A stretch of DNA of 64,000 bases from an uncultured Gemmatimonadaceae bacterium. Its GTDB lineage: Bacteria > Gemmatimonadota > Gemmatimonadetes > Gemmatimonadales > Gemmatimonadaceae. Below the pieces are notes generated by a model. It ran no database searches. It saw only the letters and a list, made by a program, of their open reading frames with translations, and was not told where the DNA came from. The position numbers were made by a program, and so were the translations under genes. Shown in pieces: positions 38,280-45,497 of the stretch (positions within the stretch are counted from its first letter, which is position 1; every line of letters begins with the position of its first letter). The DNA lies in contig CAWGJO010000020.1 of the NCBI GenBank assembly GCA_963822945.1, positions 288,001-352,000 of the forward strand, given 5' to 3'.

Positions 38280-38900
38280 ATGGCCATCGTCACCATCTCG
38301 CGAATGTACGGCTCGGGCGGGTCGCTGGTGGCCCGCCGCGTGGCCGACGCGCTCGGCTGGGACCTGCTCGACAACGGCGTCGTGGATGCCGTGGCGGAGC
38401 GGCTCGGCCTCTCGGTCGCCGAGGTCTCCGCCCATGAGGAGCGGGTGCCGTCGCTGGTGGAGCGCCTGGCGTCGGCATTGACGCTCAGCGTTCCCGAAAT
38501 GCTTCCCGTGGTCGACACGACTCTGGCGCCCACCGAGGAGCGGATCGTGGCGGTGACGCGTGCCGTCATCGAGGAAGCGGTGCAGACGGGGCATGCCGTG
38601 CTCGTCGGCCGCGGCGCCCAGTGCGTGCTGGCCAACCGCCCCGACGCGTTGCACGTGTTCTGCTACGCGCCGCGGCGCGCGCTCGCGGCGTTCGTGATGA
38701 GCGAGCGCGGCGTGTCGAACGAAGAGGCGCTGCGCGTCGTGGACACCATGAACCACCAGCGCGAACAGTACGTCAAGCAGCACTGGCACCGGGAATGGCG
38801 CGCCGAGGAGAACTACGATCTGTGCGTCAACACGGGGACGCTGGGAATCGAGGGCGCGGCGCGCATGGTGATCGCGTTGGCGCGCGATCGCTTCGAGTAG
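38280..38900 (+). CDS. Cytidylate kinase-like family protein
   Basis: VTISRMYGSGG, VLVGRGAQ, YDLCVNT. Confidence 0.88.
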   Translation: MAIVTISRMYGSGGSLVARRVADALGWDLLDNGVVDAVAERLGLSVAEVSAHEERVPSLVERLASALTLSVPEMLPVVDTTLAPTEERIVAVTRAVIEEAVQTGHAVLVGRGAQCVLANRPDALHVFCYAPRRALAAFVMSERGVSNEEALRVVDTMNHQREQYVKQHWHREWRAEENYDLCVNTGTLGIEGAARMVIALARDRFE

Positions 38901-38919
38901 ACCGGCCCGCCTGCGCCGC

Positions 38920-40030
38920 TCACGCCGACGGCGCCGCGTTCTCCCCGAGCCGCTGCCAGCCGTCGCTCCACGTCATCGGGTACGAGCAGGTCGTCCGAGA
39001 TCGCGGCGATCTCTTCCGCCTCCTTCCACGCCGCTTCCAGCATCGCGAGTTCGCCCTCGAGCGCGCGGCGCTCGACGTCCTCGTGCGCCGACATCTCGAG
39101 CGCGAGGGAGATCGCGGTCGGCAGTGCGCTGAACGGGACCCCGCCATTGGGGGTGATGACCGTGGGCGACCCGTGCTCGCGCGCCTGGCGGGCGAACAGG
39201 TCGCCAGGATCGGGGTGCCGGGTCAGCACCTCCACCGCATCGCGCACGACCGCGCGGCGCGCGCCCTTCTCGTTGACGGCGGGCAGGACCTTTCTCGCGG
39301 CGGCGAGCGCGGCGTCGCCGGTGAGTTCCATCTCGATCATCCCGTCGGAATTGCGAATGCCGGGCTTCCACTCGCGGGGTGAACGGACCGGGATGAGCGC
39401 CTCGAGAATGGCGGGGCGGTCGCTGACGGCGAGCCGCATCGACCACCCGTCCGGTCCCGCAGGCACCAGCCGGATCCAGGGCATGTGGCGCCGCCGGAGT
39501 GGAAACTGCTCGCCCGTTTCGGGATCGGCGACCCGGGCCCGGATCCGGCGGCCATTGTGGACGTGACGCGCGAAGTTGAGCCCGTCGAGTGCCAACATCG
39601 GTGCGACACCGCCGAGCAGTCCCGCCATCGGTCCCGCCGCCACGTATGCGGCGATGAAGACGGCCGACGCACCGATGCGCACGACCTTGCGCCTGCGGCG
39701 TCGCCCGAACTGATCGCCGTAACGCCACGCCGCCATCTCGGGCCGCTGCGCCGCGCCGATGCGCACCAGTTCGAGTCCCTCACGTACCCGGGCCAACCCG
39801 ATGTTGTCGGTGGAGGCGCGAAGCCGCGTGTCCCGGTACAGGCGTTCGCACTCCTCGATCGCCTCCCACCGCTCCTCGAGCGGCGTGAGGTTCCAGCGCT
39901 CGCAGTGCCGGCAGATCACCCAGAGCCGCCCCTTATCGGCATCGAACGCGAGGCGGCGACCGACCGGAAAGCGCTCGATGACTTCGTTGGCCCCGAGGCC
40001 CTGATTGCAGAACAGGCAGGTGGAGTACAC
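38920..40030 (-). CDS. Hypothetical Zn-ribbon membrane protein, paralogue A (probable indel near 38958; ORF track extends it to 38813)
   Basis: CLFC...CRHC, central hydrophobic segment; termini nearly identical to 40034-41140. Confidence 0.8.
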
Positions 40031-40033
40031 GAC

Positions 40034-41140
40034 TCAGATTTTCCGCTTGAGACGGGCGAACCAGGTCTCCACTTCGGCCGGGAGCAGCAGGTTGTCGGAG
40101 ATGTGGGCGATCTCGTCGGCTTCCTTCCACGCCGCCTCGAGCATGGCCAGCTCGCCCTCGAGGGCGCGGCGCTCGGCGTCCTCGTGGGCGGACATCTCGA
40201 GCGCCAGCCGGATGGGCTTGGGGATCTGCTTGATGATGCGCCCCTTTTCGGTGAGCGAGGCGGGCGTGAGCAGGCCGCTGCGCGTCTGAGTGGCGAAGAA
40301 GCGCCCGGGATCGGCGTCCTCCTCGATCAGTTTCACGGCGCGCTGCACGTCGTCCTTCGCAGCACCACTGGCGTTGATCTTGGGCAGGATCTTCCCGGCG
40401 ATCCGGACCGCCTCGTCGCCGACGAACACGGCACTCGTGCGCCGCCCCCGCTTCCCGTGGCGGACGATGCGCGGCGGCGGCGGATCGCCCGGCCGGCCCG
40501 GCGTGCTCGGCAGTTTGAATCGCTTGGGAGCGATGGGCACGCGGAGCGCCCACCCCAGTTCGTTGTCATCGCGGATCAGGTTGACCTTGACCACGTGCTC
40601 CGCGTCGAGCACATACGGCTTGTCCATCCACGGCATCGGCAGCTTCACGCGACCGAACGCGCGTCGGTACAGCTGCGCGAACAGCTGCGGCGTCTGGCCC
40701 AGGAACCCCGCACCCCCGATCGCGTACAGGCCAAGCGCGGGGCCGACGATGTAGACGCCCGCAACCGCTGCCGCCCCGACACCCGCATAGGTATAGTAGC
40801 GGCGGCGCCGGCGCCCGAACTGATCGCCATAGCGCCACGCCGCCATCTCGGGGCGATGCGGGCGCCCGATGCGCACCAGTTCCAGCCCTTCGCTCACGCG
40901 CGCGAGTCCGATGTTGTCGGTGGACGCACGGAGCTTGGTGTCGCGGTACTGCCGTTCGCATTCCTCGATCGCTTCCCAGCGCTCGTCGAGCGGGCTCAGG
41001 TTCCAGCGCTCGCACTTTCGGCACACGACCCACAGCCTGCCCTTCTCGGAGTCGAACGCAAGCCGCCGTCCGATCGGAAAGTGCTCGATGACCTCATTGG
41101 TGCCGAGGTTGGAGTTGCAGAAGATGCAGGTCGAATACAT
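40034..41140 (-). CDS. Hypothetical Zn-ribbon membrane protein, paralogue B
   Basis: CIFC...CRKC, hydrophobic segment after the RRRRR stretch; tandem paralogue of A. Confidence 0.85.
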   Translation of the reverse strand: MYSTCIFCNSNLGTNEVIEHFPIGRRLAFDSEKGRLWVVCRKCERWNLSPLDERWEAIEECERQYRDTKLRASTDNIGLARVSEGLELVRIGRPHRPEMAAWRYGDQFGRRRRRYYTYAGVGAAAVAGVYIVGPALGLYAIGGAGFLGQTPQLFAQLYRRAFGRVKLPMPWMDKPYVLDAEHVVKVNLIRDDNELGWALRVPIAPKRFKLPSTPGRPGDPPPPRIVRHGKRGRRTSAVFVGDEAVRIAGKILPKINASGAAKDDVQRAVKLIEEDADPGRFFATQTRSGLLTPASLTEKGRIIKQIPKPIRLALEMSAHEDAERRALEGELAMLEAAWKEADEIAHISDNLLLPAEVETWFARLKRKI

Positions 41141-41206: not shown

Positions 41207-42424
41207 CTACAGCGCTCGCATCTGGGGCGTCTGGCGGAAGGCCCACACACAATACGCGAAAATCATCGCCGCGGTGCCAGAGATGGCCCACTGATCGCCG
41301 AGATGCTCGGCGAGCACCCCGGCAATGAGCGCGCCCACGGCCTGGGAGAGGCCGACGACGATGAACGAATAGGCTGCCATGAGCCGCCCGCGCAGGTGAT
41401 CGGGCACGATCGACTGCAGGATCCCGTTGGCCAGCGCCCCACTCACGATCATCGCGAATCCGACGGCGAGCAGAGCCGGGTACGCCATGGCCGGTGTGTA
41501 GACGAGCCCGAACAGCACGAGGAGGAGCGCATAGGCGCGCACGCCGCCCTCCCAGAGGCGGCCGCGCGGCCAGTTGGCGCCCGCGGCGGCCAGCCACAGG
41601 GCGCCGCCGAGCCCGCCGATGCCGACACAGGCGAGGAGGAGCCCGTACCCGCCGGCGCCCATGTTCAGCCGGTCGCGCGCCACCACCGGCATGAGCACCA
41701 GATACGGCACACCGAGAATCGAGTACACGGCCACGACCTTGAGCATCGCGGCCACCGCCTTCGTGTCGCGCAGGTACCGGACGCCTTCGATGGCGCCGGC
41801 GAGCGGGGAGGCAACGACAGCCGTCGGGTGCCATTTCGGAAGCCGTATCATGTACAAGCCGACGAGCACCGCCACGTAGCTCAGCGCGTTCAGGCCGAAG
41901 CACCAGGCGATGCCCAACTGCGCGATGGCGGCGGCGCCGACGGCCGGTCCGACGATGCGGGCCAGGTTGAAGCCGCTCGAGTTGAGCGCGATGGCGTCAC
42001 GCAGGTCGTCGCGGCCGACGAGTTCGACGATCAGCGACTGGCGCGCTGGAATCTCGACGGCGTTGATGGCGCCGTTCGCGAACGCGAGTCCGACCAGCCA
42101 CCAGATGGTGGCGGCCCCCGACCAGGTGATGTACCAGAGCGCCACGGCCTGCACGAGAAACAGGATCTGGCCGAGCTTCACCAGGCGGAGCTTGTCGCCG
42201 CGGTCGACGAACACACCGGTGAACAGCGAGAACCCGACGATGGGCCAGGAGGATGCGGAGGCGACGAGGCCGACGAGGAAGGGGCTGTTCGTGAGTTGCA
42301 GCGCCAACCAGCCCAGCGCCATCGTCTGCATCCAGGTGCCGATGAGCGAGAGCGTCTGACCGAACCAGAACAGCCGGAAGTTCCGGTGCTTGACCAGGGC
42401 GCGGAACGGGTTCGCCGTCGGCAT
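41207..42424 (-). CDS. MFS transporter (DHA3/MFS_3-like)
   Basis: NFRLFWFGQ.LS.IGTWMQ, PARQS, AIALNS..FN.ARIVGPA; about 12 TM. Confidence 0.92.
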   Translation of the reverse strand: MPTANPFRALVKHRNFRLFWFGQTLSLIGTWMQTMALGWLALQLTNSPFLVGLVASASSWPIVGFSLFTGVFVDRGDKLRLVKLGQILFLVQAVALWYITWSGAATIWWLVGLAFANGAINAVEIPARQSLIVELVGRDDLRDAIALNSSGFNLARIVGPAVGAAAIAQLGIAWCFGLNALSYVAVLVGLYMIRLPKWHPTAVVASPLAGAIEGVRYLRDTKAVAAMLKVVAVYSILGVPYLVLMPVVARDRLNMGAGGYGLLLACVGIGGLGGALWLAAAGANWPRGRLWEGGVRAYALLLVLFGLVYTPAMAYPALLAVGFAMIVSGALANGILQSIVPDHLRGRLMAAYSFIVVGLSQAVGALIAGVLAEHLGDQWAISGTAAMIFAYCVWAFRQTPQMRAL

Positions 42425-42489
42425 GCCACCAATATACCGGAGACCGGTGGCCGCGTTGTGGCGTCGGAAGCGCCATCCGGCGCCATGGA

Positions 42490-42516
42490 GCCGCAGATCT
42501 CGCAGACCACGCAGAC
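42490..42516 (+). repeat. Left inverted repeat (3 x 9-mer, core CGCAGA) flanking the GxxExxY gene
   Basis: GCCGCAGAT CTCGCAGAC CACGCAGAC. Confidence 0.8.
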
Positions 42517-42535
42517 GGAGTAGCAGTCGACACGA

Positions 42536-42981
42536 CTACGGTCGAAGTGGCCGCGCCTGCTTCAGCCGGTTCGTCAGGACCAGGCGCTCGAATTGCGGCT
42601 TGGGACCGAAGTTCAACAACAGCCCCCGCTCGATCGTGGTTGCCTTCAAATAGTTGATCACCTGGGCGCGATGCGCCGGGCCGAGGCTCTCCACCGCCTT
42701 CACCTCGACGATGACCTGATCGTCCACAATCAGATCGGCACGGAATTTCCCAACCACCCGCCCACGGAATTTGACGGGCAATACCACCTCTGCGCGGACG
42801 GTCGCACCGGCGTCCGCGAGAGCCGCCATGAGGGCCCGGCGGTAGACGCTCTCGAGAAACCCCCAGCCGAGTTCCCGGTACACACCAAAGAAGGCGCCGA
42901 TCACCCGGTAGGTAATCGGATCCCTCGTCTGATCGCTTTCGGCCTGAGGCAACGCGGCTCCTGGGTGATCGGCTGTGCCAT
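42536..42981 (-). CDS. GxxExxY protein (PD-(D/E)xK nuclease-like); start uncertain
   Basis: LGWGFLESVY motif, RADLIVDDQVIVEVKA, QVINYLKAT...GLLLNFG. Confidence 0.9.
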
Positions 42982-43008
42982 TTCTGTGTGCTCTGCGTGT
43001 TCTGCGGC
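42982..43008 (-). repeat. Right inverted repeat (3 x 9-mer) flanking the GxxExxY gene
   Basis: Minus strand reads GCCGCAGAA CACGCAGAG CACACAGAA; 22/27 identical to the left arm. Confidence 0.8.
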
Positions 43009-43144
43009 CCACGCTGCCAGACCCCGCTCTCGGTAACCCCTTTCCCCAGCGCCTCCATCATCAACTCGCCGCGGGGCGCCACGAAATCCCCGCGGCGTGG
43101 CACTCTTTCGCCGGTGCGGGTATTCTTGGGAGAGGGAGGCCCGC

Positions 43145-44425
43145 ATGCGATTCCATACCTACACCAAGTTCAGCGCCGAAGCCGCCGACCAGGTGGACCT
43201 CCAGGCGCTCCTCGACAAGCTCGCGGACTTTCTCCTGCAGTCCGGGTTCGCCGGGGCCAACCTGCCATTCGGCGGCAACTTCGACTTCGAGGAGGAACAC
43301 GACCGGTCGCTCGACGCCCTGCGCCAGGCGATCCTCGACGCCCTCATCGAGAGCGGACAGTTCACCCCCGAGATGCTGGAGGCCCTGCGCGGCGAGGGCG
43401 ACGAGGAGTCGCAGGCCAAACTCGCCAAGCTGCTGGACGATCTCGTGCAACGCCTCATCGAGGAGGGGTTTCTCAACCTCGAGGCGCCACCCCAGATGCC
43501 CGGCGCCCACCAGCCGGTCGAGGGCCCGGGCAGCCTCGCCAAAGCCGCCGCCCGCGACGTCCAGTTCAACCTCACCGAGAAGGGCATCGACTTTCTCGGA
43601 TACAAGACGCTGCGGAACCTGCTCGGCTCGCTGGGCAAGTCGAGCGCCGGCAGTCACGAGACGCCCCATCTGGCCACCGGCATCGAGGCCGACGGCTGGA
43701 GCAAGCCGTACGAGTTCGGCGACGTCCTGAACCTCGACGTCAACGAAACCCTCAAGAACGCGCTCGCCCGCACCGGCAAGATCGAGGTGCCCATCGACCT
43801 CGACTACGGCGATCTGATGGTGCGCCAGGCCGAGTACCGCTCGTCGTGCGCCACCGTCCTGATGCTCGACTGCTCACACTCGATGATCCTGTACGGCGAG
43901 GACCGGTTCACGCCGGCCAAGAAGGTGGCCCTGGCGCTCACCCACCTCATCCGCACGCAGTTTCCCGGCGACACACTCAAGGTCGTGCTCTTCCACGACT
44001 CGGCTGAGGAGATTCCGATCGCCACGCTGGCCGGGGCGCAGGTGGGACCGTACCACACGAACACCGCCGAAGGGCTCAAGCTGGCCCGGCGGCTGCTGAT
44101 GGCCCAGAAGAAGGACATGCGGCAGATCATCATGATCACCGACGGCAAGCCGAGCGCGCTCACCATGCCCGACGGCCAGATCTACAAGAACGCGTTCGGG
44201 CTCGACCTCACCGTCATCCAGGAAACACTCAAGGAAGTGGCGCGCTGCCGGCAGGCCGGCATCATGATCAACACGTTCATGCTGGCGCGCGACCGGGCCC
44301 TGGTGGAATTCGTCAAACGCGTGTCGGAGATCAGCCGCGGCAAGGCGTACTTCACCACTACCATGAGTCTCGGCCAGTTCATCCTCATGGATTTCCTGAA
44401 GCGGAAGACGCGGAAGGTCTCATAG
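43145..44425 (+). CDS. VWA domain-containing protein
   Basis: [23 protein letters not shown]. Confidence 0.9.
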
Positions 44426-44502: not shown

Positions 44503-45145
44503 TTGCGCGCCTGGTTCCGCCGGAACCATCGCGACCTGCCCTGGCGCCGCACGCGCGACCCGTATCAGATCCTCGTCTCGGAACTGATGCTGCAGCAGAC
44601 CCAGGTCTCGCGCGTGCTGGAATTCTATCCGCGATTTCTCGCCCGGTTTCCCACGGTCCACCACCTGGCGCGTGCCACGCCAGGGCGCGTGCGCGAAGCG
44701 TGGGAGGGGCTCGGGTACTACGCGCGGGCCCGCAACCTGCACGCGCTGGCCCGGCACGTCACCCGGGACGGCGCTGACGGCGTGCTCCCCGCCCACCCCG
44801 ACGAACTCCGCGGCCTGCCGGGCATCGGCGCCTACACGGCGGGCGCGGTGGCGAGTTTTGCCTACGAGACGGCGCGCTGCGGCCGTGGACACCAATGTGG
44901 CCCGGGTGCTCACCCGCGCGTTCGCGCCGAAGCTCGACCCCAAACGCCCCCGGGACCTCACCACGCTCTGGGCGATCGCCGAGCGTGTTCTTCCCCGAAC
45001 GGGCAAGGCGACCTGGATACACAACCAGGCCCTCATGGAACTCGGGGCCCTCGTCTGCACCGCGCGGGTGGCCCGGTGCGAGGCGTGTCCGGTGCGGAGC
45101 TGCTGCAGGACCGGCCGGAAGGCCCGGAAGGGTCCGGCCTCCTGA
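44503..45145 (+). CDS. mutY: A/G-specific adenine glycosylase, short form, frameshift near 44870; start uncertain
   Basis: RDLPWR, VSELMLQQTQV, WEGLGYYARARNL, LPGIGAYTA; VDTNVARV and C-x6-C-x2-C-x5-C in the second frame. Confidence 0.85.
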
Positions 45146-45332
45146 GGTCGCCGGACCCCGACCACCGGCGGCGGGCGGGCGAGGTCCGATTCGGGGGAAT
45201 TCCAGCCACCCGATCGCCCGGGCGGCACAGGGGCGCCAACCGCCTTATCTTACGTACTCCGCCGGACGCGGCAGCCGTCCCGCCATTCTCATCGTCGGCC
45301 CCCTGGGGGCCCGACCCAACCCCACCCGACCA

Positions 45333-45497
45333 TTGGCGAAGAAACCCAACTACGGATTCCAGAAGCACATGAAGGAACTGGCGCGCAAGAAGAAGAAGGA
45401 GGAGAAGCGCCAGCAACGCCGTGAGGCCGCTGCGGCCAAGCGGGAACAGACGGACACCACTCCGGTGGAAGGCGACCCAGAGGCCGAACAGGAATAA
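45333..45497 (+). CDS. Small basic protein (54 aa, TTG start)
   Basis: (M)AKKPNYGFQKHMKELARKKKKEEKRQQRREA... with an acidic tail; purine-rich coding-like sequence in an intergenic gap. Confidence 0.7.
   Translation: MAKKPNYGFQKHMKELARKKKKEEKRQQRREAAAAKREQTDTTPVEGDPEAEQE

Follow-up and report, generated by a model that had tools for sequence, protein, structure and literature searches.

What does a gene for a small GxxExxY protein do between two inverted arrays of short repeats? The question is raised by a 64,000-nucleotide stretch (the window) from an uncultured Gemmatimonadaceae bacterium, in which such a gene stands alone between two arms of periodic boxes, and it concerns a family that is widespread and, in the part of PMC3424549 consulted, has its function given as unknown. 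The reading that we favor, at a probability of about one half, is that gene and arms constitute a one-gene system of an enzyme and its cognate repeat, in which the protein would bind and cut at its own arms, and this cutting would lead to the cassette being exchanged, flipped, lost and regained by recombination.

Periodic inverted arms at GxxExxY genes

A first-pass annotation had described inward-pointing inverted arms around a lone small gene, and this layout holds: the arms show the identity that it gave (Table 1), and the open reading frame (ORF) between them contains the GxxExxY motif and matches both TIGR04256 (GxxExxY; 130 bits, cut-off 35) and PF13366 (PDDEXK_3, also above its cut-off). 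The 9-nt periodicity stands as well, with three boxes in each arm, but the core has to be read as CRCAGA and not as the CGCAGA originally proposed. By itself the arm pair is modestly unlikely, its local alignment score of 33 being reached at 15 of 3000 random positions in this repeat-rich genome; the genome contains 13 triple-box arrays, versus 0 in each of five order-5 Markov simulations. A duplex between the two arms would be worth about -25 kcal/mol (DNA parameters), and a single arm has no hairpin of its own, with -3.5 to -6.2 kcal/mol per 50-nt stretch, a weak pairing that comes partly from the flanks. The cassette has no match in Rfam.

Arms of this kind occur across the family. The survey gathered 218 loci, of which 188 had full flanks and 184 were left after removal of near-duplicates; it is not a random sample, consisting of the best 80 of about 600 matches for each of two subfamilies together with Gemmatimonadota loci, and the locus scan used the narrower alignments A3 and A4, because the broader A1 and A2 varied too much for it. 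An unpublished genome, G022, supplies one alignment row and one empty site, and no claim depends on it alone. With arms defined as an inverted match between the upstream and downstream flanks scoring at least 30, they were present at 141 of the 184 loci versus 2 of 292 shifted controls, an enrichment beside GxxExxY genes that had been predicted from the window alone; the same threshold was reached by 36/184 loci in direct orientation and by 117/1828 cross-locus pairs. The top match to the upstream flank was the locus's own downstream flank in 92/184 cases. Loci from the named collection have arms in 50 of 72 cases, spanning ten named phyla, and the nearest named related locus carries the label Gemmatimonadaceae.

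The arms are arrays of 8-11-base boxes, spaced chiefly by 8, 9 or 10 nt (128, 158 and 127 counts), and the first two spacings are equal between both arms in 91 of 109 loci. At 75 anchored loci, the purine positions of the outer box are split about 50:50 across the family, yet they are 95-97% identical between the arms of one locus, and the similarity of the arms drops off within a few bases beyond the outer box. Arm type also tracks the clade of the protein, with the box ending in G for 62/69 GPGLLE-type proteins and in T for 44/69 GxGFxE-type proteins, and with 54 box-type changes on the tree versus at least 75 in 200 shuffles. A search for residue-to-box associations gave no recognition code, the signal being dominated by the deep split between the two clades.

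In the case of the window's gene, the longest ORF begins at a GTG, but the likely start is a TTG preceded by AGGAG (Table 1), which would give a protein of 138 residues and therefore place the right arm outside the coding sequence. Residues E34, D73, E83 and K85 of the motif are invariant among 24 aligned sequences and, from the PD-(D/E)XK pattern, are putatively catalytic. The predicted structure has a PD-(D/E)XK core (predicted local distance difference test score 96), and its closest fold is Cas4 SSO0001 (E 4e-5, Z 8.5, root-mean-square deviation 3.2, 95 aligned), with Hjc among the next matches. A sequence search of solved structures gave a single weak match, 4IC1 (E 0.25), and Cas4 profile matches are likewise weak (E 0.0015), with the Fe-S cysteines absent from the invariant columns of the 24 sequences, so that the protein is not assigned to Cas4. 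Nor is it a GIY-YIG protein of the cd10448 type, both the family matches and the predicted fold being PD-(D/E)XK, and the family profile searches gave no DDE or HUH match. The gene is under purifying selection, the ratio of nonsynonymous to synonymous substitution rates being 0.03-0.29 in 19 of 21 pairs where it is defined and 0.12-0.29 in four unsaturated pairs. It is rare on plasmids (8 of 72,556 records, at less than 60% identity) and, with the query used, was found in 0 of 50,697 phage records; one GxxExxY locus lies in viral contigs.

A consensus scan found no sigma-70 consensus promoter. At 43057-43085 (-), just outside the block that has been exchanged, there are a GATGAT hexamer, a spacer of 16-17 nt and a TTGG-like hexamer, which are kept in the gene-bearing alleles; this pair, noticed by eye and outside the scoring of the scan, is a possible promoter for the cassette.

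Allele exchange at the MFS-VWA site

The cassette lies between a gene for an MFS transporter and a gene for a VWA-domain protein. When the 30 best VWA loci in the family are compared, only that of the window's genome (G000) has the GxxExxY gene, and an MFS gene was detected beside the VWA gene in 25 of the 29 others. Empty MFS-VWA sites had been predicted in relatives, and 10 of the 17 genomes of the genus indeed have one, with the seven cassette carriers forming a single group on the VWA tree (support 0.89). Two of the ten empty sites hold something else in the same place, a gene-less element of another arm type in G011 and a 7-mer repeat in G013.

Among the carriers, a block reaching 47 and 28 nt beyond the arms, with its borders in host-like sequence, has been replaced in place, and the flanking genes have stayed where they were. 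In eight neighboring genes the sister genome G012 shares 94-98% identity with the window, but in the GxxExxY gene only 66%, whereas the more distant G001 is 79-93% identical in the neighbors and 95% in the GxxExxY gene. Over 42400-43099, 228 alignment columns (gaps included) join the window with G001 and 15 join it with G012, and this relation is reversed on both sides; the synonymous difference (pS) to G012 is 0.71 in the GxxExxY gene versus 0.09 in the VWA gene. In a 187-kb scan, 6 of 617 scan windows were nearer to G001 by more than 3 points, and three of these are the cassette, the strongest such block. A 300-nt scan window at 39901 is also nearer to G001 than to G012. A candidate co-conversion tract at the 5' end of the MFS gene in G001 was dropped, the stretch being conserved in all relatives.

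Metagenomic contigs place both alleles beside the same flanks. A contig from run X3 is identical to the window over 42211-42442 and then passes into the G012-type allele, and a contig from run X4 has the G012-type allele first and is identical to the window over 43037-43174. In the flank each contig departs from G012, and difference-free pieces of the window's own allele are present in both runs as well. Flanks identical to those of the window are thus joined to either allele, and therefore two deep alleles, or hybrids, are present in one background.

Two side observations concern the neighboring genes. Tandem paralogous genes at 38813-40030 and 40034-41140 (-) share an N-terminal CxxC...CxxC pattern, the second having no Pfam match, and at 44503-45372 a frame that we take from its translation to be a MutY-like A/G glycosylase is apparently split by a frameshift near codon 122 compared with relatives, which could be an assembly error.

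Table 1 Features at the MFS-VWA site (window coordinates)
Feature	Position	Strand	Remarks
Left (downstream) arm	42490..42516	+	three CRCAGA boxes, 9-nt period
Right (upstream) arm	42982..43008	-	three CRCAGA boxes, 9-nt period; inverted relative to left arm, 22/27 identical
GxxExxY / PDDEXK_3 gene	42536..42952	-	138 aa from the inferred TTG start at 42952; longest ORF from GTG 43012
AGGAG, likely ribosome-binding site (function inferred)	42958..42962	-	5 nt ahead of the TTG
Block exchanged in place	42443..43036	no strand	allele A in the window; deeply diverged allele B in sister genome G012 and in strains with window-identical flanks
MFS transporter gene, host flank	41207..42424	-	MFS_3; scores far under the cut-offs of named efflux families
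VWA-domain gene, host flank	43145..44425	+	divergent from the MFS gene

Paralogs and gene-less arm pairs

The window's genome, whose contigs are cited here as C13, C20, C21, C27, C33 and C44, has three GxxExxY genes that are 42-48% identical to each other. Both of the other paralogs also lie inside inverted periodic arms, of a different sequence with CGGAT-type cores, so that three paralogs come with three arm types, and gene-less copies of each type are found elsewhere in the genome, many of them as inverted pairs. Solo arms and gene-less pairs had been anticipated genome-wide, and both occur, including 11 CRCAGA arrays outside the window's cassette. In the genus, CRCAGA arrays are present in 7/7 carriers and 3/10 non-carriers, a comparison in which kin are not independent and several genomes are incomplete.

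The GxxExxY genes of the genus stand chiefly at five sites (with 32 loci that were placed against G000 and a few that were not), and those sites repeat the pattern seen in the window. At the paralog site C33:37k, G000 and G012 are 97-98% identical in the flanks, 74% in the gene and 60-65% in the arms; 5 of 7 relatives carry the gene in inverted orientation at C33:86k; and at C44:16.5k and C13:34.7k the gene is present in other species, G000 having a gene-less pair instead. At four orthologous gene-less sites the arm type differs between species. Observed separately at loci L308 and L309 (G006:C3:31267 and 42551) is an identical arm-bearing stretch of about 150 nt that occurs twice, 11 kb apart, beside tRNA-like sequence, in the manner of the two ends of an integrated island. 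A 3.1-kb stretch between arms in G006 was considered as cargo mobilized by the arms and was not counted, as it holds an insertion sequence (IS)-like and an island-like insert.

Two CRCAGA triple arrays lie in frame within coding genes, presumably a glycine-dehydrogenase-like gene (C20:155532-155557, L320) and a P-type-ATPase-like gene (C20:859659-859685, L321), to judge from the translations, and their orthologs have 0, 2 or 3 boxes. The array in the ATPase gene is explicable as 9-nt slippage of a chance seed, and in the glycine-dehydrogenase-like gene a loop carries a whole arm, including its outer and inner end motifs.

Some gene-less elements are compound (C21:5502-5857, C20:55800-56037, L383 and L308), with an outer CRCAGA arm, runs of an AACTGC 6-mer, inner arms that belong to another type, and a hairpin at the center, a construction that suggests layered insertion or overwriting. 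At C27:29814-29945 the left half of a gene-less element has undergone a 106-nt tandem duplication that is absent in G012 and G009. Intergenic tandem runs of the 8-mer GTCGGACA, which are unrelated to the GxxExxY arms, are abundant on many contigs (C21:62535-62615, C33:37409-37441, and C20:308606, at about 20606 in the window).

Proposed mechanism, alternatives and meaning

If the protein and its arms form one system, several subunits may bind the boxes, phased at 8-11 nt, on one face of duplex DNA or of a foldback stem made from the two arms, and a Cas4/Hjc-like active site may then nick or resolve the bound structure at or near the paired arms. Host homologous recombination would mend the break from an arm-bearing template, using the homology of arm and flank, and the outcome of repair would be a swap, flip, loss or gain of the gene, or the overwriting of gene-less arms with the resident type. 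In this way the cassette would maintain itself without a transposase, as a semi-domesticated, homing-like element accompanied by a population of satellites.

Several observations weigh against this proposal. The exchange borders lie outside the arms, and therefore ordinary recombination between conserved flanks, together with selection, could yield the same mosaic without a cut by the enzyme; alleles A and B, moreover, are very different yet have the same arm type, so that a swap need not alter specificity. The two metagenomic contigs have a depth of 3-5, come from two studies, and no contig spans the whole cassette. In addition, 43 of the 184 loci fall below the arm threshold, and the covariation of arm and protein is what plain co-inheritance among related loci would likewise be expected to give. 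No GxxExxY remnant was found inside the 12 gene-less loci scanned, and CRCAGA arrays occur in G011 (6), G004 (2) and G010 (1), where a gene of matching type was not found, G011 being a clear exception. Finally, the Z of 8.5 for Cas4 is not far above the rows of unrelated proteins, and a fold gives no substrate.

The cassette works like REP/RAYT systems, TIRtrons and NTS-ssnA-NTS, but it differs from each of these in the enzyme and the repeat structure that define it. In the parts of the REP/REPIN-RAYT (REPtron) and TIRtron literature consulted (PMC3116915, PMC5581495, PMC3733652, PMC8266576), the shared traits are one gene per repeat type, inverted flanking repeats, gene-less inverted doublets, fixed chromosomal sites and several gene-repeat pairs per genome; here too, cognate inverted repeats flank the gene and also form gene-less doublets. 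Unlike those systems, the cassette has no HUH/tyrosine transposase, its boxes are periodic, and its exchange borders lie outside the repeats, and unlike REPtrons it lacks a palindromic unit and a GTAG/CGTC tag, with arms that fold weakly alone. The nearest solved folds, Cas4 (SSO0001, 4IC1) and Hjc resolvases, are about 22% identical to the protein, and the stretch examined has no CRISPR context.

Free-standing homing endonucleases are likewise lone nuclease genes with filled and empty alleles at fixed sites, and their replacement borders lie in flanking homology. The MFS-VWA site has filled and empty alleles, with conversion tracts that end in flanking homology, but homing endonucleases do not share the terminal repeat arrays, the satellite population or the filled-for-filled replacement seen here, there is no intron or intein, and a cleavage site in the empty allele is hypothetical here.

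The first of the alternatives, though an unlikely one, is that the protein is a domesticated, Ssn-like restriction factor. As a site-specific DNase for single strands it would tune gene transfer by cutting incoming or lagging-strand DNA close to its repeats, and the alleles would turn over at fixed sites through ordinary recombination and frequency-dependent selection. As far as the available part of the Ssn report goes (PMC11893778), the two share a small single-domain nuclease gene with its own repeat on both sides, dispersed copies, homolog-specific repeat variants and a wide phylogenetic spread, and the fixed sites, purifying selection and rarity on plasmids and phages seen here fit such a role. 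According to the same part of that source, however, the nuclease is GIY-YIG and not PD-(D/E)XK, its repeats are 20-50-nt hairpins and not phased, non-palindromic box arrays, and its copies number hundreds and not tens, whereas cassette swap in place and inversion are features of the GxxExxY cassettes. Repeats do flank the gene on both sides here, but they are not self-hairpins as the NTS are; 11 arrays outside the cassette are few for a genome-wide filter, and neither the inversions nor the overwritten arm types are explained by an Ssn-like role itself.

It is less probable still that the arms are operators, serving autoregulation or looping for a nuclease with another job such as defense or repair, and that slippage and host recombination produce the gene-less arrays and the swaps as passive side effects. 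Phased, non-palindromic boxes are well suited to cooperative operators, and their placement on both sides of the gene is compatible with this role; the slippage that would account for the array in the P-type ATPase gene and the weak Cas4 profile matches also agree with it. What operators leave unexplained are the many unlinked sites at which each paralog has gene-less inverted pairs of its type, the glycine-dehydrogenase-like loop with its whole arm and end motifs, and the change of arm type at orthologous sites.

The resemblance to transposon ends and to REP-like arrangements, both raised in the first-pass annotation, divides at this point: cognate inverted arms and gene-less pairs sustain the REP-like half, and the transposon-end half fails. 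A classical IS with terminal inverted repeats and derived miniature inverted-repeat transposable elements, in which the nuclease acts as the transposase, could account for the inverted ends, the gene-less derivatives, the empty sites and the cassette GC content, which is below that of the flanks in 161 of 166 loci, and a patchy distribution with "multiple transfers" is mentioned in the part of PMC3424549 seen. We nevertheless disfavor it and regard it as very unlikely. As had been reported for the window, there is no target-site duplication, direct repeats outside the arms being in no excess at 75 loci (mean longest repeat 4.91 for own flanks versus 4.95 cross-locus); the protein has no DDE or HUH match; near-identical gene copies are absent from the genome, and in the genus each arm type comes with a single gene, at a small number of fixed sites; and the borders of the exchanged block fall beyond the arms, so that the ends of the element do not coincide with the inverted repeats. 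Least probable of all is that the arms act in RNA, pairing in a transcript that is then processed, perhaps by RNase III, in the way of rRNA intervening sequences. Despite the arm duplex and the single transcript that both arms would share, G-U-compatible mismatches (176) are about as common as A-C mismatches (174) on the sense strand at 141 loci, so that the ends show no sign of selection to pair as RNA, the internal periodicity would be unneeded, the cassette lies between divergent host genes, Rfam gives no match, and the borders outside the arms argue against an RNA stem as they do against a transposon.

Returning to the favored reading of an enzyme with its cognate repeat, what this locus contributes is a map, at the level of single bases, of an allele exchange in place, with both alleles present in one background. 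The design of a nuclease plus cognate repeat at GxxExxY genes is apparently undescribed, no description of repeats at these genes having been found in the literature searched, to which subscription journals and supplements did not belong. The arms give every member of the family a candidate substrate that can be read from its genome, and the function of GxxExxY proteins is therefore directly testable; the A and B alleles, which share an arm type, and the two paralogs, whose arm types are different, are a ready panel for cross-specificity. If the reading is true, these proteins would be a third class of enzyme, after HUH (RAYT) and GIY-YIG (Ssn), that maintains an intergenic repeat population. 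This would account for the 8-11-mer arrays that are abundant, and so far without explanation, in many environmental bacteria, and the family could become a source of very small site-specific nucleases.

A further-reaching version, which we offer tentatively and consider rather improbable, is that the cassettes form a transposase-free class of selfish DNA, in which a minimal Cas4/Hjc-like nuclease would read helically phased boxes and cut folded-back or cruciform arm pairs. Host recombination would then bring the cassette into gene-less pairs by homing, displace alleles that compete with it, and add arms to sequences that match them in part, including sequences within genes. Should that be so, nature would provide in this family a large library of sequence-specific nucleases of 130 residues, with the target of each one legible in the DNA on its flanks.
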